Source of the DNA: an uncultured Cetobacterium sp.
Lineage (GTDB): Bacteria > Fusobacteriota > Fusobacteriia > Fusobacteriales > Fusobacteriaceae
Direction: 5' to 3'
DNA length: 64,000 nucleotides
NCBI RefSeq assembly: GCF_947072685.1
Contig: NZ_CAMTIK010000009.1
Location: 3,360 to 67,359, forward strand
The first letter of the stretch is position 1. Every line of letters starts with the position of its first letter. Positions 36,480 to 63,386 of this stretch are shown in pieces. The notes under the pieces were generated by a model. The model did no database searches. It saw only the letters and a program-made list of their open reading frames with translations, and was not told the origin of the DNA. The position numbers were made by a program, and so were the translations under genes.

Positions 36480-37157
36480 ATGAAAAAAACAATTGGAGTT
36501 ATCTCTGTATTGCTATCTACAATCTGTTTAGGGAATGACACACCTACAATCGCTGTCACTGGAAGTGGAACTGTTACCGGAAAGCCTGATATGCTTAGTA
36601 TCATCGCCTCTGTAGAAACAACAAATCCAAACTCTGAAAAAGCGATCTCTGAAAATACAAATATTATAAATAATGCCATTAAGCTACTGAAAAAAGAGGG
36701 ACTGAAAGATAAAAATATAAAGACAGAAAACTACTCTCTTAATTTTAGAAATGACTACAATACCAAAGAAAATGAAATGAAATATTTTGTTAAAAATCAG
36801 ATTATTATTACAAGTGATGATTTGGAAAATACTGGTAAAATTTTAACAGCTCTTAACAATGGTGGAGTTAATAATATCGGTGAAGTCAATTTCTATATTG
36901 CCGATCGAAAAGAACTAGAGGATAAGGCCTATGTTTTAGCCTATGAGGATGCAAAATCTAAAGCCCAACTAATTGCCGGGATTGATAAATTTAGTATCAC
37001 ACCAAAAGATATTAACTTAAACTTTTCAACACCTAGACCACTGGGATATGTCTTCGCTTCTAATGCTAAAATGGGTGACGCCACAATTCCTGTGACTATC
37101 CCTAATAATATTGATGTAACTGCAAGTATGAATGTTATCTTCTATATGGAAAAATAA
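36480..37157 (+). CDS. SIMPL/DUF541 (YggE-like) exported protein
   Basis: Signal peptide, I.VTG.G.V...PD, AY..A..KA..IA pattern. Confidence 0.85.
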   Translation: MKKTIGVISVLLSTICLGNDTPTIAVTGSGTVTGKPDMLSIIASVETTNPNSEKAISENTNIINNAIKLLKKEGLKDKNIKTENYSLNFRNDYNTKENEMKYFVKNQIIITSDDLENTGKILTALNNGGVNNIGEVNFYIADRKELEDKAYVLAYEDAKSKAQLIAGIDKFSITPKDINLNFSTPRPLGYVFASNAKMGDATIPVTIPNNIDVTASMNVIFYMEK

Positions 37158-37220
37158 TTTTTTCCATAATAAAACCTCTGATTTATTGAACTGAAACTCT
37201 CAATAAACCAGAGGTTAATT

Positions 37221-38507
37221 TTATTCTATTCCTTTTTCTATCAAATTATTTTTATCCTCACTCCATTCCATCCATCCATTAGAGTACAAGGAATTCCTCT
37301 CTTTCCCCATAACTTCTGAATAAAATAGCACCTCTGCCGCTCTCCAACCAGAACCACAGAAAAAAGTTAACTCCTTGTTTGAATCTATTCCTAACTTTTC
37401 CCACATATCAAAAATTTCATATCCATTTCTCATTGTATTGTCTATGTTCCTATAATTTTCTAATGTTACCGAAGTTGTTCCTGAGTTTCCCCAAACACTT
37501 CCCGAAATTCTACCTTTTCTATCCATGTAAGAATACCCTGATTCTTTTCCTATCCTCTCATTATAAGATCTTATGTCCACCAATACTTTACTCTTCTGAT
37601 TATCAGATAGCACATTTTTAGTTTCAGCAATATCTATTATCAACTTTTTATTCAATGGTATTTTAGATCCAAAGCTTTCAATAGGCTTAGGATTTACATT
37701 CCCTATATCCACTTTATACCCTTCCTTTTGCCAAGCAGATAACCCACCATTTAACACTCTTACATCTTTGACACCGATATATTTTAATATAACCGCTAAT
37801 CTATATGAAGCCATTACATTATCTCCGTAGAGAATTATTGTATCCTCTTTAGCTATCCCCATGCTTTCAGCAAATTTTATTAAATTTTCATCACTGTTTA
37901 TCATCCATTTCGGTGGCGGCTCAATACTATCGGTATTTATATGAGGAGCTTCTGGAATATGTCCTGCTAAATATATTACTGCATTTGCTAAACTTCCCCA
38001 AGATACCTCAAAGATTTTTGCTGATTTTTTATCTAAAGCTGATTTAACCCAACTTGCAGGTACTAATATTTCATAATTTTTATAACTCTCAAAAGGAAGG
38101 GATTTATACTCTTCATTTGAATTTAAATTATAAAAATAGATATTTTTTATTCCTAATTTACTTAAATAGTTTGCAACAATTTTAGATTTATTTTTATCAA
38201 CATTATATAAAATTATATTTTTTTCAGGTGTTATCCCCTTCAATGAAACTCTTTCTTTTAATATTTTGCTATTCGCTTCATTCAAGTTTTCTTTATCTAA
38301 CCATTTATACGAAAAGTCTGTTGCTCCTTTGATATGTCCATTAACTCCTAAATTTGAAAGATCCCACCCATTATACTCATTTGTATCCCTTGTATCGACA
38401 ATAATCCAATCAGAATTATTTAATCTTTTTAAAACCTCTTTTGTATCAATATCTTTACCAAATATTAATACAGACATTGTAAACATTAAAAACAGTATTT
38501 TTTTCAT
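37221..38507 (-). CDS. Exported triple-rhodanese sulfurtransferase (YnjE-like)
   Basis: Signal peptide and three rhodanese repeats (IVDTR..GHIKGA; GHIPEA..LNGG; VDIRS..FFCGSGWRA with the catalytic Cys). Confidence 0.87.
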   Translation of the reverse strand: MKKILFLMFTMSVLIFGKDIDTKEVLKRLNNSDWIIVDTRDTNEYNGWDLSNLGVNGHIKGATDFSYKWLDKENLNEANSKILKERVSLKGITPEKNIILYNVDKNKSKIVANYLSKLGIKNIYFYNLNSNEEYKSLPFESYKNYEILVPASWVKSALDKKSAKIFEVSWGSLANAVIYLAGHIPEAPHINTDSIEPPPKWMINSDENLIKFAESMGIAKEDTIILYGDNVMASYRLAVILKYIGVKDVRVLNGGLSAWQKEGYKVDIGNVNPKPIESFGSKIPLNKKLIIDIAETKNVLSDNQKSKVLVDIRSYNERIGKESGYSYMDRKGRISGSVWGNSGTTSVTLENYRNIDNTMRNGYEIFDMWEKLGIDSNKELTFFCGSGWRAAEVLFYSEVMGKERNSLYSNGWMEWSEDKNNLIEKGIE

Positions 38508-38613
38508 CTAAATCTCCTAATATATTTTTCCTAGGCAGCACTTTACCTAAAATACAGTATAACCAATTAGCCTTTAACCTAAAAGCTATAAACAGTCAGT
38601 TATTTCATTTCAA
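38455..38613 (-). CDS. Candidate Sec-recoded leader peptide, 52 aa (MKUNNULFIAFRLKANWLYCILGKVLPRKNILGDLDEKNTVFNVYNVCINIW)
   Basis: AGGAGG SD (38622-38627) 8 nt before TTG 38613. In-frame TGA at codons 3 and 6, then open to TAA 38455. SECIS-like hairpin after TGA 2. Recoding is inferred. Confidence 0.4.
38559..38603 (-). promoter_or_regulatory. SECIS-like RNA structure
   Basis: Upper stem UAGCUUUUA-GGU-UAAAGGCUA (38588..38568) with the apical G 16 nt after UGA. The UGA itself pairs in a lower stem (AUAACUGA with UUGGUUAU). Confidence 0.5.
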
Positions 38614-38643
38614 AGTCCTCACCTCCTAAAATATTTCCAACTG

Positions 38644-38673
38644 ATTATATCACTCAGATATTACAAGCGTCAA
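38644..38673 (-). promoter_or_regulatory. Promoter of the leader-rhodanese transcript
   Basis: TTGACG-18-TATAAT with extended TGn. Confidence 0.75.
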
Positions 38674-38809
38674 GAAAAATAGGCTAATCTTCCCACCTAA
38701 TATTATTAAATAAATCTATTTATGATATTATAGATAATTTAAATTGATTTTATAAAAAATATGTTGTATTCTTACTTAAAAAGAAAATTAAATTTAAAGG
38801 AGCTCAAAA

Positions 38810-40006
38810 ATGGAAATAGGGATTTTATTTTATATATTAACTTTTTTAGGTGGAATCTTATCCTTCTTCTCTCCATGTATAATCCCAATAATTCCAATTT
38901 ATTTTGGATATTTAGCTGGAAGTGGAAAAAAAACAGATTGTTATGGCAATATTTTTTATGATCAAAAAAAAGTTTTTCTTCATACCCTTTTCTTCACTTT
39001 AGGGATATGTGTATCTTTTTTTATTTTAGGAATATCATTCACAACATTAGGAGATATTATTTTTACACAGAAAGATATTTTTTCTAAAATTGGAGGCGTG
39101 ATTATTATTCTCCTTGGTTTATTTCAACTAAACCTCTTAAAATTAAATTTTTTACAAAGAGATATGAGGTTAAATTATAGTGAAAAACCAATCAATCCTC
39201 TGATTGCTTTTATAACAGGATTCACATTCAGTTTTGCATGGACACCATGTGTTGGACCAATTCTTTCCTCGGTCCTTATTTTATCAAGTAGTGTTTCAAA
39301 TAAACTTATTGGTAACTTTTTAATTTTAATATATTCTTTAGGTTTTATAATTCCATTTTTATTAATTGGGATTTTTACAACAAGATTATTAAACTTTTTT
39401 AAAGCTAAGCAAAAGTTTCTTAAGTATACCTCTAAAATTGGCGGTATTCTTTTAATCACTATAGGTTTGTTAACTTTTTTAGGGTACACTAATAAACTTT
39501 CAACTTATCTTGTTTCTTCAACAAACAATGTCAAAGTTGGAACTCAACAAGAAGCAACATTTAATTCAGACAGCTATAAACTTTTTGACCAATTTGGAAA
39601 AGAGCATGTTTTATCAGATTATAAAGGGAAAACTATTTTTTTAAATTTCTGGGCTACTTGGTGCCCACCTTGTAAGGAGGAAATGCCATATATAGAGAAA
39701 ATTTATAAAGATTTCGGTAGTAATGAAAAAGACATTATTATTCTTGGAATAACAAATCCTGTAACGGAAGAAAATCCCTATGGTCAAGATAAAGATATCA
39801 ATCAAATCAAAAAATTTATAAAAAACGGTAATTATACATTCCCTACTGTTTTTGATAAAACTGGAAAGTATTTTGAAAACTTTAAAATAAGAGCTTATCC
39901 AACAACTGTTATAATTGGAGCAGATGGCCAAATTAAAGCCTCTATTCCTGGAGCTATGAACGAAGAACAAATGAAAAAACTTATTAAATCTCAAAGTTCT
40001 TTTTAA
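38810..40006 (+). CDS. CcdA (DsbD-TM) + TlpA-type thioredoxin fusion
   Basis: SFFSPCIIP and AWTPCVGPIL (CcdA Cys pair); NFWATWCPPC and AYPTT (TlpA). Confidence 0.9.
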   Translation: MEIGILFYILTFLGGILSFFSPCIIPIIPIYFGYLAGSGKKTDCYGNIFYDQKKVFLHTLFFTLGICVSFFILGISFTTLGDIIFTQKDIFSKIGGVIIILLGLFQLNLLKLNFLQRDMRLNYSEKPINPLIAFITGFTFSFAWTPCVGPILSSVLILSSSVSNKLIGNFLILIYSLGFIIPFLLIGIFTTRLLNFFKAKQKFLKYTSKIGGILLITIGLLTFLGYTNKLSTYLVSSTNNVKVGTQQEATFNSDSYKLFDQFGKEHVLSDYKGKTIFLNFWATWCPPCKEEMPYIEKIYKDFGSNEKDIIILGITNPVTEENPYGQDKDINQIKKFIKNGNYTFPTVFDKTGKYFENFKIRAYPTTVIIGADGQIKASIPGAMNEEQMKKLIKSQSSF

Positions 40007-49034: not shown

Positions 49035-50060
49035 ATGAAACTTTTATTAGATAGATGTTCAATCGGTGGTTGAGCAAGTAAAATAGGACCGGAGGTCCTT
49101 TCAAATTTATTAAAAAATCTTCCAAGTGTGGAAGATAAAAATTTAATCGTTGGTTTTGAAAAATCTGATGATGCTGCTATATACAAATTAACTGATGATA
49201 TAGCTCTTATTCAAACTTTAGATTTTTTCACACCTATGATTGACGACCCATATATCTTTGGTCAAATTGCGGCGGCTAACTCTTTGAGTGACGTTTATGC
49301 TATGGGAGGCGAGCCTAAAACAGCCATGAATATTGTTTGTTTTCCTGAAAAAGAAAATATTGAAATTTTAGGTGAAATTTTAAGGGGTGGAGCAGAAAAA
49401 ATAGTTGAGTCTGGAGCTGTCCTAAGTGGAGGACACTCAATTCATGATCCAGAGATTAAGTATGGTCTTTCTGTAACTGGATTAATCCATCCAGATAAAG
49501 TCTTAAAAAATTACGGCTCTGAAGAAGGTGACATTTTGATTATTACTAAGCCTCTAGGAACAGGTATTATTTCAACTGGTTCAAAAGTGGAACCTCTTTC
49601 TGAAGATGTAAAAAAAGAGTGGATTGAAGTTATGACAACTCTAAATAAATACTCTGCAGAAATAATTAAAAATTATCCAGTTTCAGCTTGTACTGATATC
49701 ACAGGATTTGGATTTTTAGGACATGCTTATGAAATGGCTGTTGCGTCTGACAAAACTTTTACTTTAGAGCAAGAGCTTATCCCATATATCGATATTGCAA
49801 GAGAGTTCGCCAAAGAATTTTACATTAACTCGATGGGACAAAAAAATAGAAATTATTTAAATGATAAAGTTGACATAACCTCTGTTCCTCTATGGTTACA
49901 AGAGATTATGCTCGACCCTCAAACATCTGGTGGTTTATTATTTTCTATTCCAGGAAGATATGGATCTGAAATTATAGAAAATTTAAATCAATTAAAAATT
50001 AAATCCGCAATAATTGGTACTGTTGATAAATTTAACGGTAAATATATTGTTGTTAGATAA
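49035..50060 (+). CDS. selD: Selenide, water dikinase; selenoprotein (Sec13)
   Basis: SD AGGAGG, ATG 49035, GG-U(TGA 49071)-ASK in frame with the tracked ORF. DDAAIY, QT.DFF, GGHS, DITGFG, DPQTSGGLL motifs. Confidence 0.93.
49071..49104 (+). promoter_or_regulatory. selD SECIS element
   Basis: UGA, 11 nt, AGGACC-GGA-GGUCCU. Apical G is 17 nt after UGA; UUGA pairs with UCAA (49101-49104). Confidence 0.85.
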
Positions 50061-50069
50061 GGGGAAAAT

Positions 50070-51455
50070 ATGAAAGATAAACAAGCCCTTTTAAGAACTC
50101 TACCAAAAGTAGATAAACTCATAGATTCATTGGAGCAAAAAGAGTTTTTTAAAGGTAAACCATATCAAGAGGTCTACGATGCTGTCAATAACAGCATCGA
50201 TCTTTTTAGAAAAAACATTCTCAACAACACAATCACAAGTTTTTCTTTGGATGATATTGAACGTGAAATTAGAACCTCATTAAATAAAAGTTTAGAATTT
50301 CAATTCAAAAGAGTTATTAATGGTACTGGGACTATTCTTCATACAAATTTAGGAAGAGCTCTTTTTTCAGAGGAACTCGCTGAACATTTAAAGAATTCCC
50401 TTATTGGTTATAGTAACTTAGAGTTTGATTTGAACACTGGAGAAAGAGGAAGCAGATACTCCCATATTGAAACTCTTATCGCTAAAGTTACTGGTGCTGA
50501 AGCGGCTCTTGTTGTCAACAACAATGCAGCGGCTGTTATGTTATGTTTAAATGAATTTAGTAAAAATACATCTGTAATTATTTCTAGAGGTGAACTTGTT
50601 GAAGTTGGGGGTTCTTTTAGAATACCAGATATAATGGAACTTTCTGGAGCTAATCTTATAGAGGTGGGCACAACCAATAGAACGCATCTTGAAGATTATG
50701 AAAAAGCTATCAATGAGACAACTTCTATGCTCTTAAAAGTACACACATCTAACTATCACATCGACGGATTTACAAAATCAGTGAACAATAAAGAGATAGC
50801 AGATTTAGCTAAAAATAAAAACATCATATCTATGGAAGATTTAGGTAGCGGAGTACTTATCGATTTTTCAAAATACAGTTTACAAAAAGAACCTACTATT
50901 TTAGAATCGCTAAATTCTGGAATGGATCTTGTGACTTTTAGTGGAGATAAACTTCTTGGTGGTCCACAATGCGGTATTATTATTGGAAAAAAATCACTCA
51001 TACAAAGATTGAAAAAAAATCAATTTCTAAGAGCTTTCAGAGTTTGTAAGATGACAATTTGTGCTTTAGAATTTATTTTTAAACAATATGTTGATGAAAG
51101 TACAGCTATAAAAAATAATCCCACACTCAATAGAATTTTAGAATCTACTGATGTTGTTCTAGAAAGAGCCCATATTTTAAATTCTCTTTTAAAAACAATA
51201 GGAATCGAAGGGCAAATCATCTCAACTAAAGCTATTATTGGTGGTGGGTCTATGCCAAACGCCTCTCTTGAGAGCTATGGTGTCCTAATAAAAAATATGG
51301 ATCCTTCTTTTATAGAAAAATCATTTTTAAAACAACCTATTCCAATTGTAGGTAGAATTCAAAATAATCAATTTTTTATAGACTTGAAAACAATCCACAG
51401 TGATGAGTACTCTATTATTGTAGATAGTTTTAAGCGAATCCTCGAGTGTGAGTAA
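50070..51455 (+). CDS. selA: L-seryl-tRNA(Sec) selenium transferase
   Basis: VINGTGTILHTNLGRA, VNNNAAAV, EVGTTNRT, FSGDKLLGGPQ motifs. Confidence 0.95.
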   Translation: MKDKQALLRTLPKVDKLIDSLEQKEFFKGKPYQEVYDAVNNSIDLFRKNILNNTITSFSLDDIEREIRTSLNKSLEFQFKRVINGTGTILHTNLGRALFSEELAEHLKNSLIGYSNLEFDLNTGERGSRYSHIETLIAKVTGAEAALVVNNNAAAVMLCLNEFSKNTSVIISRGELVEVGGSFRIPDIMELSGANLIEVGTTNRTHLEDYEKAINETTSMLLKVHTSNYHIDGFTKSVNNKEIADLAKNKNIISMEDLGSGVLIDFSKYSLQKEPTILESLNSGMDLVTFSGDKLLGGPQCGIIIGKKSLIQRLKKNQFLRAFRVCKMTICALEFIFKQYVDESTAIKNNPTLNRILESTDVVLERAHILNSLLKTIGIEGQIISTKAIIGGGSMPNASLESYGVLIKNMDPSFIEKSFLKQPIPIVGRIQNNQFFIDLKTIHSDEYSIIVDSFKRILECE

Positions 51456-51456
51456 T

Positions 51457-53331
51457 ATGAACAATATTATTATAGGTACTGCTGGACACATCGATCATGG
51501 AAAAACAACACTGGTTAAACACCTTACTAATATCAATACAGATACCATGAAAGAGGAAAAAGAAAGAGGTATGACCATTGATTTAGGTTTTGCCCCTCTC
51601 ATTGCTCCGGACGGTAAAACATTTAGTATTATTGACGTCCCAGGGCATGAAAAATTTATTAAAAATATGGTTGCTGGGGTTAAAGGAATAGACTTTGTTC
51701 TATTCCTTATTGCCTGTGATGATGGGATTATGCCTCAAACTGTGGAGCATAAAGAAATACTTAAACTCCTTGGAATACATCATGGAATTATTGTTCTATC
51801 CAAAAGAGATCTAGTTTCTTTTGAAGAAGCTGAGCAACTAAAAGTGGATATAACTAATTTTTTTGATGATGGATTTTTCAAATCTTTTCCAGTTGTTGAA
51901 GTTTCAAATAAAGATGAAACCTCTTATACACTTCTTTATGAAAAAATTATTGAAGAGACCTCAAAAATCCAACGTACTAATCCTCATAATCATAACTTTT
52001 TTAGATTGGATATAGATAAAATATACTCTCCTAAAGGAGTTGGAACTATTGTTAGTGGAACATCCGAGGGGAGTATCTCCAAAGGAGATTTTTTAACTCT
52101 CTATCCAAGTAAAGTACAGATTCGTATAAAAGGAATTCAAACTCATGGTAAATCTATTGATACAGTTACATCCCACCAAAGATGTGCATTCAACATCACA
52201 AATATTAACGCTAAAGATATTGAAAGAGGAAATCTTTTAACAAATCATCCTGCTCTTTTAAATACTCGACTTATAGATGTTTTATTTACTCCTCTTACAA
52301 AAAAAATACTTCCTAAAAACAACACTAAAATTCGTTTAAATATTGCTACTGGTGAGTATTTTGGAAAAATAAAATATCTTCACGATAATATTGACAAAAC
52401 ATTTTTTTTCCAACTTATAATGGATAAAGAGATCCCTGTTAATTTTGGAGACATAGGTATTATTAGAAGTTTAGAAAATTCATCTCTTTTAGGTGGAGTT
52501 CGTATTTTAAATACACTGGCTATGCCAACTAAAAAAAACAATCCCTTATATTTAAAAAAACTAGAACTTCTTTGTAATAAAGATGAAATTGATATAAATG
52601 AATATCTTTACCATAAAAATAGTTTTATATCCCTAGCACAGCTCAATCAAGAGCTCAATGCTAACTATTGTCTTGGGGATTTTAATACTGATATTTTAAT
52701 TTTACAAGATTCAAATATTATTATTCATAAGGATGTTCTTTCTTCAATAAAAAATCATATTTTTGAATATATATCTTTATTTCATGAAAAAAACCCTTTA
52801 AAGCATGGACTTTCTATAGCTACCTTGAAAAATAAATTTTTCTTAAACAAAAATACGAAAGAGTTTAATGATTTTCTAATTTTTCTTTCAAAAGATACTT
52901 TTAAAATCAAAGACGGTTCTCTCTCTCTTTCAAATTTTAAAATAAAACTTTCAAAAGATGATCGTCTCATCAAAGACACTCTTTTAATTATTCTTAAAAA
53001 TCAAGCCTTTAAGGGGCTTGAATTAAAAAAAATAGAAGCATCTTTCATCGACAAAAAAAGATTGAAAGATATTCTTTTCTATCTACTTTCTGAAGGTTTA
53101 CTAATTGAAATTTCAAATAATACCTATATTTTAAAAGGATTTTTTAAAGAGGCTTTAAATCGATTAAATCTTTTTTTTATGTCTAACACTGAACTAACTT
53201 TGAGCGAATTTCGAAACATTTTAGGTAGTAATCGCGAAGCTGCCCTCATGTATTTGGAATACTTTGATTTTATAGGTATCACTAAAAAAGTTGGCACCTA
53301 TAGAATTTTTAAAAATATCGATACAAAATAA
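51457..53331 (+). CDS. selB: Selenocysteine-specific elongation factor
   Basis: GTAGHIDHGKT, GMTIDLGF, DVPGHE; C-terminal winged helices ending R...LEYFD...T.K.G..R. Confidence 0.93.
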   Translation: MNNIIIGTAGHIDHGKTTLVKHLTNINTDTMKEEKERGMTIDLGFAPLIAPDGKTFSIIDVPGHEKFIKNMVAGVKGIDFVLFLIACDDGIMPQTVEHKEILKLLGIHHGIIVLSKRDLVSFEEAEQLKVDITNFFDDGFFKSFPVVEVSNKDETSYTLLYEKIIEETSKIQRTNPHNHNFFRLDIDKIYSPKGVGTIVSGTSEGSISKGDFLTLYPSKVQIRIKGIQTHGKSIDTVTSHQRCAFNITNINAKDIERGNLLTNHPALLNTRLIDVLFTPLTKKILPKNNTKIRLNIATGEYFGKIKYLHDNIDKTFFFQLIMDKEIPVNFGDIGIIRSLENSSLLGGVRILNTLAMPTKKNNPLYLKKLELLCNKDEIDINEYLYHKNSFISLAQLNQELNANYCLGDFNTDILILQDSNIIIHKDVLSSIKNHIFEYISLFHEKNPLKHGLSIATLKNKFFLNKNTKEFNDFLIFLSKDTFKIKDGSLSLSNFKIKLSKDDRLIKDTLLIILKNQAFKGLELKKIEASFIDKKRLKDILFYLLSEGLLIEISNNTYILKGFFKEALNRLNLFFMSNTELTLSEFRNILGSNREAALMYLEYFDFIGITKKVGTYRIFKNIDTK

Positions 53332-60720: not shown

Positions 60721-60886
60721 TCTCAACTCCCTTTCCAATTGTTGTATTTAAAAACAATTTTTATAATACCACTTTTCATACAATAATGCAATTTTTTTTG
60801 TTATTTAATTAACAAATTTTAACAGTGTAATTTTTTAATTAAATGCTGTATAATATAAAGAAACAAAATATTTAGGGGTGATATCT

Positions 60887-61477
60887 ATGATTAAAATTAA
60901 TGCTATTGGACAAACATGTCCTATGCCTGTTATTATGACCAAAAATGCTTTAAAAGAAATTTTACAAGGTGTTGTTATTGTTTCAGTTGATAATAATATT
61001 TCAAAAGAAAATATAGAAAAATTTGCTAAAGAGATGGGGTTTTATTTTTCTACAAAAGAGGATAAAGGAATCTACTCTGTTGAAATAACAAAAGGACTAT
61101 CCCCTGAGCACAAAATTTCTCCTAATGATATGACTTTAGAGGATAATACCGTCATTGTTATTGCCAGTGACAAAATGGGTGAAGGGGATGAATTATTGGG
61201 AGAAACTCTCATGAAAGGATTTATTTATACTCTTACCGAGATGGAGGTATTACCTAAAACTATTTTGTTCTATAATAAAGGTATCTTTTTTACATCTAAT
61301 ATAGAGTCTTCTATTAAAGATTTAAAAACTCTTGAAAAAAGAGGTGTTGAGATTCTTTCTTGTGGAGCTTGTGCTAATTTTTATCATCTTGAAAACAATA
61401 TAGCTGTAGGAACAATAACTAATATGTATAGTATAATTGAAAAACAGATGAAAGCCAGAAAGGTGATTCGACCATAA
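60887..61477 (+). CDS. yedF: Selenium metabolism protein YedF (TusA + DsrE domains)
   Basis: G..CPMPV (TusA CPxP), GEGDE.LG..LMK.F, ILSCGAC. Confidence 0.88.
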   Translation: MIKINAIGQTCPMPVIMTKNALKEILQGVVIVSVDNNISKENIEKFAKEMGFYFSTKEDKGIYSVEITKGLSPEHKISPNDMTLEDNTVIVIASDKMGEGDELLGETLMKGFIYTLTEMEVLPKTILFYNKGIFFTSNIESSIKDLKTLEKRGVEILSCGACANFYHLENNIAVGTITNMYSIIEKQMKARKVIRP

Positions 61478-61781: not shown

Positions 61782-61875
61782 GGAAGCGGATGAGTTACTG
61801 GTGTACTCAGCAGTCTTCAAAACTGTCTTGGCGAGTCAAATCGCTGGTAGGTTCGATTCCTATACGCTTCCGCCA
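61782..61875 (+). tRNA. selC: tRNA-Sec(UCA)
   Basis: 94 nt, GGAAGCGG...GCAGT-CT-TCA-AA-ACTGT, long variable arm, GGTTCGATTCC...CTTCCGCCA. Confidence 0.95.
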
Positions 61876-62810: not shown

Positions 62811-63386
62811 TTATTTTGCCCAAATTTTTTCTAAAAATTGATCTCTCCCTGAACGATATCTATAATATTTATATCTTATTGGATTTTTCTTATAATAGTT
62901 TTGATGATATTCTTCAGCAGAATAAAAATTTTTGAATGGTATTAGAGCAACTTTCATCTCTTTAAAATTCCCAGCCTCTTTTATGAGACTCAACTCTTTT
63001 AAAGCATCTTTTTTTTGGTTTTCATTCAAATAAAATATTGCTGGTGAGTATTGAAATCCTCTATCAATAAATTCTCCGTCTCCATCTGTTGGATCTATGT
63101 GCTTTAAAAAATAATTGATTATATTAGCATAACTTATCTCACTATCCTCATATTTTACTAAAACTGATTCTCTATGACCAGTTCCACCAGCTGAAACCTC
63201 TTCATATGTTGGACTTTTAATAGTTCCTCCTGAGTATCCTGAAATAACACTCTTCACTCCTGAAAGTTTTTCTAAATCACTTTCAACACACCAAAAACAA
63301 CCGCCTGCTAAATACGCTTCTTTAATTTCAGCATTCACTATAGCCGTTGATAATAATATTCCTAAAATAATCAACCACTTTTTCAT
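62811..63386 (-). CDS. msrA: Exported peptide-methionine (S)-S-oxide reductase
   Basis: Signal peptide, AGGCFWC, GYSGG, YEEVS.G.TGH.E, DRG.QY, AEEYHQNYY motifs. Confidence 0.93.
   Translation of the reverse strand: MKKWLIILGILLSTAIVNAEIKEAYLAGGCFWCVESDLEKLSGVKSVISGYSGGTIKSPTYEEVSAGGTGHRESVLVKYEDSEISYANIINYFLKHIDPTDGDGEFIDRGFQYSPAIFYLNENQKKDALKELSLIKEAGNFKEMKVALIPFKNFYSAEEYHQNYYKKNPIRYKYYRYRSGRDQFLEKIWAK

Follow-up and report, generated by a model that had tools for sequence, protein, structure and literature searches.

Bacterial selenium sensing is poorly known, and besides the selAB operator of Escherichia coli and the LysR-type regulators of methanogens we know of no selenium-responsive cis element that has been described. 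The selAB operator resembles a selenocysteine insertion sequence (SECIS), lies 3 nt from the Shine–Dalgarno sequence (SD) and is bound by the complex of SelB, GTP and selenocysteyl-tRNA (SelB-GTP-Sec-tRNA), as the work of Thanbichler and Boeck is summarised in PMC13449736. In Treponema primitia, selenium controls the transcription of fdhF(Sec) via translation of the UGA/SECIS region (PMC3892789). Bacterial selenoproteins with a UxxU arrangement of selenocysteine (Sec) residues also exist, for example Prx-like proteins and members of the FmdB family (review PMC13188914). Here, a stretch of 64,000 nt from an uncultured Cetobacterium sp. (contig NZ_CAMTIK010000009.1; the window) was analyzed for the leader of a gene encoding an exported rhodanese. 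Homologues likewise point to Cetobacterium, a fish-gut genus of the Fusobacteriaceae. This leader of about 130 nt joins a short upstream open reading frame (ORF) with two in-frame UGA codons (UGA1 and UGA2) to two hairpins, H1 and H2, and appears to be a switch, not described before, that signals selenium status. The kinds of component are known (SECIS, SECIS-like operator, leader peptide), while their combination and the AGUG hairpin H2 are new. No description of a Sec-codon leader ORF was found in Rfam or in the searchable literature.

A preliminary description of the window had reported a promoter, an AGGAGG motif, the codons TTG-AAA-TGA-AAT-AAC-TGA, 46 open codons and a GGU-capped hairpin ahead of the rhodanese gene. 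Each was recovered at its place on the minus strand (Table 1). Alignment of the regions upstream of orthologous rhodanese genes had been proposed as a check. Such regions were taken from genomes, public assemblies and metagenomes, and were joined by the results of a metagenome pattern scan and by plasmids of C. somerae. The leader recurs, as 13 distinct sequences, in Cetobacterium and low-GC contigs related to it, where it stands ahead of three unrelated operons. Both TGAs, the start codon and the SD are kept in the alignment, and the pairing of the GGU hairpin is kept by compensatory changes.

The start codon of the upstream ORF (TTG or ATG), the UGA at codon 3, the second in-frame UGA and the heptamer UAGGUUA are invariant in 13/13 leaders. 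An SD of the GAGGUGA/AGGAGG type lies 7–9 nt from the start in every one of them, and codon 2 varies (AAA, AAG, AGA or ACG). Between the two UGAs, 12 leaders have two codons of free sequence (9-nt spacing) and L073 has one (6-nt spacing; L numbers denote comparison sequences), with the frame kept at both spacings. In a genome of 31% G+C, UAA is the expected stop, and the second UGA is never UAA or UAG in the 13 sequences. A cysteine codon (TGY) is absent from either UGA position in the same set.

Downstream of the second UGA, RNAalifold gave a consensus H1 with a 7-bp stem and a GGU loop, in which 98.9% of cells are paired. Three of the pairs show compensatory changes, and the covariation score was reached by 0/500 shuffles. 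Stem variants include CUUUUA/UAAAAG, CUACUA/UAGUAG and CUCUUA/UAAGAG. The conserved core occupies 38586..38570 in the window, where the stem begins 10 nt after UGA2; the gap is 8 or 10 nt across the leaders. Bacterial SECIS elements place the loop some 16–37 nt after the UGA according to the bSECISearch consensus. The GG of the H1 loop is found 14–16 nt after UGA2 and 22–25 nt after UGA1 (16 and 25 nt in the window), so that the distance from UGA1 falls inside this range and that from UGA2 at or below its lower edge. All 13 leaders hold UGAs in frame in a predicted translated ORF with a strong SD, followed by a covarying stem. A lower stem containing UGA2, which had been part of the preliminary description, is seen weakly in the single-sequence fold of the window and is absent from the consensus fold.

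A second, weaker hairpin had also been noted, in the register TTTT-AGGT-AAAG. A hairpin does exist at this place, but the register was wrong: the conserved form is H2 as listed in Table 1. H2 is present in every leader as a stem of 4–9 bp, built from unrelated sequences around an invariant AGUG (loops AAGUGC, AAGUGU, GAGUGU or AAGUGA). In 13/13 leaders the four inner positions of the stem pair, with GC, UA, AU and CG replacing one another. H1 and H2 are about 17 to 100 nt apart, and H2 always keeps a distance of 5–25 nt to the main-gene SD that follows it. Pairing of the 5′ arm of H1 with the 3′ flank of H2 was considered and rejected, since sequences of the C. somerae group would allow it but L087 and the window do not conserve it.

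The likeness of H1 to the SECIS of the selD gene in the same window, claimed earlier, holds. The selD Sec codon is followed by a GGA triloop hairpin, and the UGA-to-loop spacing is nearly equal, 14–16 nt in the leaders versus 17 nt in selD. The likeness extends to a second selD hairpin with the loop AAGUGU. Exactly two hexaloop hairpins of the H2 type occur in the whole window, H2 itself and the one in selD; outside leaders, such hairpins of at least 7 bp are found about 3 times per 1.85 Mb of comparison DNA. Chance placement of an AGUG hairpin inside selD is therefore improbable, the test being post hoc. The Sec-type selD genes of Cetobacterium L124 (74% identity) and Fusobacterium varium (69%) keep the loop as AAGUGU or GAGUGU, and do so through the uncommon codons Ser-AGU (22% usage) and Val-GUG (10% usage). 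Both hairpins are missing from the Cys-type selD of Ilyobacter polytropus. The AGUG-loop hairpin common to the leader and selD hints that the Fusobacteriota Sec system has an RNA element not recognised so far, which in selD itself may act in regulation of the gene or in Sec decoding. Complementarity of the H1 and H2 loops to tRNA-Sec was also looked for, and nothing convincing was found.

The Sec toolkit lies within 13 kb of the window: selD-selA-selB, yedF and tRNA-Sec (Table 1). The genes expected for SECIS function, selA, selB, selC and selD, are thus all present. The selD-selA-selB genes are preceded by a 5′ region of their own and not by the leader, and no selenoprotein gene besides selD was found in the window.

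Table 1. Positions of the leader, its main gene, the selD elements and neighbouring features in the window (hyphens separate codons, promoter parts or stem and loop).
Feature	Position	Strand	Details
Leader promoter, sigma-70 type	38644..38673	-	TTGACG 38673..38668; 18-nt spacer; TG 38652..38651; TATAAT 38649..38644
Upstream-ORF SD	38622..38627	-	AGGAGG, within GGAGGUGA; strong; 8 nt 5′ of TTG
Upstream-ORF core	38596..38613	-	TTG (38613..38611) AAA TGA (38607..38605) AAT AAC TGA (38598..38596)
Hairpin H1, SECIS-like	38568..38588	-	UAGCUUUUA-GGU-UAAAGGCUA; 9 bp in the window; GGU triloop 38579..38577
Hairpin H2	38532..38549	-	UAGGUA-AAGUGC-UGCCUA; loop 38543..38538; ends 13 nt before rhodanese SD
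Frame open after UGA2	38455..38595	-	46 codons to TAA 38457..38455; crosses rhodanese SD and ATG out of frame
Rhodanese SD and ATG	38505..38518	-	SD AGGAG 38518..38514; ATG 38507..38505
Rhodanese gene	37221..38507	-	428 aa; signal peptide; three PF00581 domains; YnjE homologue
Terminator-like hairpin	37173..37216	-	18 bp
CcdA/DsbD–TlpA fusion gene	38810..40006	+	
selD-selA-selB	49035..53331	+	
selD Sec codon UGA	49071..49073	+	codon 13
selD SECIS hairpin	49085..49099	+	AGGACC-GGA-GGUCCU; loop 17 nt after UGA
selD second hairpin	49117..49136	+	AUCUUCC-AAGUGU-GGAAGAU; perfect 7 bp; 50 nt after Sec UGA; 17 nt after SECIS hairpin
yedF	60878..61477	+	
tRNA-Sec	61782..61875	+	

The leader promoter matches the sigma-70 consensus at 11/12 positions and has the TG of an extended −10 element (TGaTATAAT). 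It is the top promoter-like site within 37000..39200, and transcription is expected to start at about 38637, roughly 10 nt 5′ of the upstream-ORF SD. A −10 box of its own was found upstream of each related leader. Assembled contigs from a fish-gut metatranscriptome contain leader and rhodanese, so both are transcribed. At the Rfam gathering threshold the whole window yielded tRNAs only, and at permissive thresholds the leader gave only noise with E > 2.

Compared with the E. coli selAB operator, the leader likewise carries a hairpin with a probable relation to Sec decoding, here H2, shortly ahead of the SD of its main gene. The ligand would presumably be the same, SelB-GTP-Sec-tRNA(Sec), with translation initiation as the output. 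Unlike in E. coli, the genes controlled here are not sel genes but a rhodanese, an operon with an energy-coupling factor (ECF) transporter and a TudS-type enzyme, and a double-cubane reductase. The leader also differs in having two different hairpins and a mini-ORF with two UGAs, and its SD-adjacent hairpin resembles the second selD hairpin rather than a SECIS proper. In common with bacterial SECIS elements of the E. coli fdhF type and of the genome's own selD, an in-frame UGA is followed within about 15–25 nt by a covarying stem-loop with a G/GU apical loop. In contrast to them, the element sits in a non-conserved ORF of 3 to 52 codons at the mRNA 5′ end instead of the active-site region of an enzyme, its stem is AU-rich, its two UGAs are 9 nt apart, and no Cys-codon homologues occur.

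The trpL, hisL and pheL attenuators offer a further parallel. They too are short 5′ ORFs with tandem codons for the monitored amino acid, here two UGAs within four codons, and the progress of the ribosome would in both cases depend on a charged tRNA. Unlike these attenuators, the leader has no terminator/antiterminator alternative that could be found and would need an RNA element in cis as well as a dedicated elongation factor; its monitored codon is a stop, so that scarcity gives termination and not stalling. As in T. primitia fdhF(Sec), selenium supply would decide whether ribosomes pass a UGA/SECIS site and would thereby change the expression of downstream RNA. There, the effect is a by-product inside a selenoenzyme gene, whereas here a separate leader precedes genes without a Sec codon.

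Ten distinct rhodanese leaders have the same layout, including those on C. somerae plasmids and in the distant Fusobacteriaceae metagenome-assembled genome L073, and the orthologues behind conserved leaders share 58–82% protein identity. The metagenome pattern scan returned 32 matches, which comprised rhodanese leaders, among them one new sequence variant, as well as chance matches and two new contexts. In L092, the leader precedes an ECF S component of the CD3073 family. The same order is found on C. somerae plasmid p4, where the leader is followed by the CD3073 S component, then a CD3072 TudS-related desulfidase, EcfA, EcfA′ and EcfT. In L123, the genes behind the leader encode a double-cubane-cluster reductase (NF040772) and the ATP-dependent activase of this enzyme. 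Of 970 occurrences of the double-cubane family, 955 are in SelD-positive genomes (Haft and Gwadz, bioRxiv 10.1101/2022.07.06.499078). Plasmid p4 (137 kb) carries its only two copies of the leader, one ahead of the ECF operon and one ahead of a rhodanese; they are separated by 6 kb that include a gene for a TonB-dependent receptor.

The 5′ unit was built into a covariance model (R1), which was run on the window, on about 65 Firmicute rhodanese loci, on flanks and on other comparison DNA. Members scored 52–79 bits and background about 20 bits or less. None of the roughly 65 Firmicute loci, nor any of the flanks, gave an R1 match. The sole other match in the window (63246..63316, 20.5 bits) lies inside msrA, has no in-frame UGA and was rejected as chance, as was one match in viral contigs. 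Homologues of the ECF S component/TudS pair and of the double-cubane reductase in Acetoanaerobium noterae have no comparable upstream ORF or hairpins. Among the sequences compared, only Cetobacterium and related low-GC contigs seem to have the leader.

We consider the chances about even that the leader responds to the supply of SelB and Sec-tRNA and so reports selenium status to the gene behind it, as the conserved sequence features suggest. Translation would begin at the upstream ORF. With little SelB-GTP-Sec-tRNA(Sec) in the cell, release factor 2 would terminate it once Met-Lys has been made. With an ample supply, SelB sitting on H1 would bring about Sec insertion at UGA1, UGA2 or both, and the ribosome would proceed through H1. 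The paired Sec codons might sharpen the response, like the tandem Trp or His codons of classical leader peptides. Judged from its position and its twin in selD, H2 would provide the output, probably as a second site for SelB or for another protein of the Sec pathway, and would gate initiation at the main gene in the manner of the SECIS-like operator before E. coli selA. Read-through could repress, by occlusion of the start in the lineage of the window or by a SelB complex on H2. It could instead activate, if coupling of transcription and translation protects the transcript, compare T. primitia fdhF(Sec).

Occlusion of the rhodanese start had been the mechanism put forward in the preliminary description, with ribosomes crossing that start after read-through. 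The TAA of the frame falls 53 nt inside the rhodanese coding sequence in the window, and a 52-codon frame reaching the start is limited to the window and its two closest relatives, L081 and L082. Occlusion was therefore given up as the general mechanism. The wider idea of a selenium-sensing leader gained ground, the module having been found ahead of two more operons linked to selenium or sulfur and the sel genes being present. Where the UGA2-to-loop spacing is 14 nt (eight leaders), the frame ends after 10 codons at a UAG inside H1; with a 16-nt spacing it runs for 24, 30, 35 or 52 codons. The frames of 24 and 30 codons, in two leaders, stop well short of the main gene. An overlapping ATG-AAA-TAA mini-ORF at 38608, raised as a caveat, does exist in the window. 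Its TAA is missing in 3/13 leaders (L087, L123 and L073), which rules it out as a conserved feature.

Several observations weigh against a Sec-dependent switch. The H1 stem is AU-rich and of modest stability, and its fold is not significant from the window alone (z = −1.26, with 29/200 shuffles folding equally well; z = −1.87 for the whole leader). H1 was accepted as real because it is conserved in relatives, not because of fold energy. The distance from UGA2 to the loop is at or below the lower edge of the SECIS range. Neither a conserved pairing that hides the main-gene SD nor an intrinsic terminator was found by the promoter/terminator scan and the consensus fold, which consists of H1 and H2 only and has no U-tract. 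As predicted from sequence, the end of read-through varies (10, 24, 30, 35 or 52 codons), and no single mechanism based on ribosome position fits all leaders. The selD loop that corresponds to H1 is GGA, or AGA in F. varium, and not GGU. The Sec-type selD of L128 has lost the AGUG loop, which shows that Sec can be inserted without this hairpin. The leader is missing from several rhodanese orthologues of Cetobacterium (L003–L005, L089 and L006), and L006 comes from strain SF1, whose SelD is listed. Finally, we infer the selenium link of the rhodanese and the ECF/TudS operon from their chemistry.

Part of this evidence would be accommodated if SelB or another protein bound the leader as an operator and no recoding took place. 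The upstream ORF would then be a Met-Lys-stop mini-ORF with a back-up stop, H1 and H2 would both bind protein as happens in the selAB 5′ UTR of E. coli, and occupancy of H2 beside the SD would regulate, the signal possibly still being selenium. The non-conserved read-through frame is expected on this account, H2 lies near the main SD (5–25 nt), as the selAB operator does, and invariant loops on variable stems, seen in both hairpins, are the usual signature of recognition by a protein. A back-up stop nevertheless leaves it unexplained that the second UGA is invariant, in frame and never replaced by UAA or UAG in 13 sequences. It also does not explain the hairpin at SECIS distance from that UGA, or the conservation of the start codon and a strong SD. 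We regard recoding-free control as rather unlikely. Less likely still is a structured leader unrelated to selenium, which would answer to a sulfur compound, to release factor 2 activity or to translation status and would resemble selD by coincidence. H1 alone is thermodynamically unremarkable, and rhodanese and TudS-type enzymes are primarily sulfur enzymes. Coincidence would, however, have to cover the two invariant in-frame UGAs with SECIS-like spacing, the AGUG hairpin common to Sec-type selD and absent from the Cys-type gene, and a target family, the double-cubane reductases, that is linked to SelD. No Rfam family was matched either.

The upstream ORF might alternatively encode a micro-selenoprotein M-K-U-x-x-U, whose diselenide or selenol pair would act with the downstream protein as a selenium carrier or redox partner, the hairpins being only its SECIS. 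Two Sec codons two codons apart recall the known UxxU selenoproteins (PMC13188914), the module always stands ahead of proteins handling sulfur or selenium, and leaders of the 14-nt class share a similar 10-residue peptide, MKUxNUGWxF. Those selenoproteins, however, are folded and have Cys-containing homologues, whereas conservation among the 13 leaders stops at M-[KRT]-U-x(1-2)-U. The length (10 to 52 residues) and the sequence after the second U vary, and Cys never takes the place of either Sec, unlike in almost all selenoprotein families. H2 near the main SD would have no role, and the supposed partners do not share a compartment, the rhodanese being exported, the ECF component in the membrane and the reductase cytosolic. 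The preliminary description had kept a tiny UxxU selenoprotein as its alternative; with nothing conserved after the second UGA this has lost ground, and we hold it to be quite improbable. A chance arrangement without function would suit the weak single-sequence fold statistics. It is refuted by 13 distinct copies in three gene contexts, by covariation in two hairpins and by the separation of members from background in the covariance model, and can be given almost no credence.

Taking the Sec-responsive switch as the working model, we tentatively propose, at somewhat below even confidence, that the leader is the first dedicated bacterial selenium-sensing cis-regulator, a leader peptide with tandem Sec codons decoded by means of a SECIS-like hairpin and coupled to an AGUG hairpin that also marks Sec-type selD, and that it defines a small Cetobacterium regulon. 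With the same reserve, the members of this regulon would be the exported YnjE-like rhodanese, the ECF importer with a TudS-like ‘deselenidase’, and the double-cubane reductase. Rhodaneses are able to carry persulfide or perselenide. A TudS-type desulfidase beside an importer would suit a pathway in which a compound taken up by the cell gives off sulfide or selenide. Literature on CD3073 and on a link between TudS and selenium was searched for, and nothing relevant was found.

If the proposal is correct, Sec decoding itself would be the sensor, which would be a new logic for trace-element homeostasis, and the leader could readily be moved between hosts to report on the activity of Sec-tRNA and SelB. 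Three poorly understood families would be tied to selenium through it: the YnjE-type exported rhodaneses, the CD3073/CD3072 pair of ECF component and desulfidase, and the YjiM-type double-cubane reductases. A role in selenium trafficking would thereby be assigned to protein families of currently unknown function. The association of double-cubane reductases with SelD, which comes from comparative genomics, also becomes directly testable through this link.

The rhodanese of the window is of the YnjE-type periplasmic triple-rhodanese kind, judged from its translated sequence, with three domains, a signal peptide and full-length similarity. It matched the E. coli YnjE-type structures 3ipo and 2wlr over its full length (residues 26–426) with E values of about 1e-71 to 3e-71, and its translation shows a hydrophobic segment at the N terminus. 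A terminator-like hairpin lies directly 3′ of the rhodanese stop (Table 1), and the rhodanese is therefore a single-gene transcription unit in the window.

Divergent from the leader promoter region, a gene encodes a CcdA/DsbD-type membrane domain fused to a TlpA/ResA-like thioredoxin domain. This fusion stays paired with the rhodanese in the two nearest relatives (L081 and L082) and is also present on C. somerae plasmid p4, at another place. It gave a weak, partial match to the model of the rhodanese/DsbD selenoprotein TsoB. In L088, ECF genes are located directly upstream of the rhodanese leader.

On p4 (L129 20035..27772, NZ_CP143323.1), the two leader-controlled operons flank the TonB-dependent receptor and a YbaN/DUF454 gene, and the ECF/TudS–TonB–rhodanese region looks like one uptake and processing island. 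The same plasmid carries a gene annotated as a C-GCAxxG-C-C family (seleno)protein (L131 284..745, minus strand), which might offer a further native SECIS to compare. A 9-bp hairpin with an AAGUGA loop was seen in Alkalithermobacter paradoxus (L031, at about 1296 on the minus strand). Its 3′ arm includes AAGGAGA, the SD of the next gene, and the hairpin may have arisen by chance or be distantly related, in a Firmicute, to H2. C. somerae plasmid p3 (L132, NZ_CP143322.1, 1..50000; 189 kb) encodes hypothetical proteins together with a DnaB-like helicase, RuvC and a tail-fibre protein, and looks like a large phage or phage-plasmid and not an ordinary plasmid.

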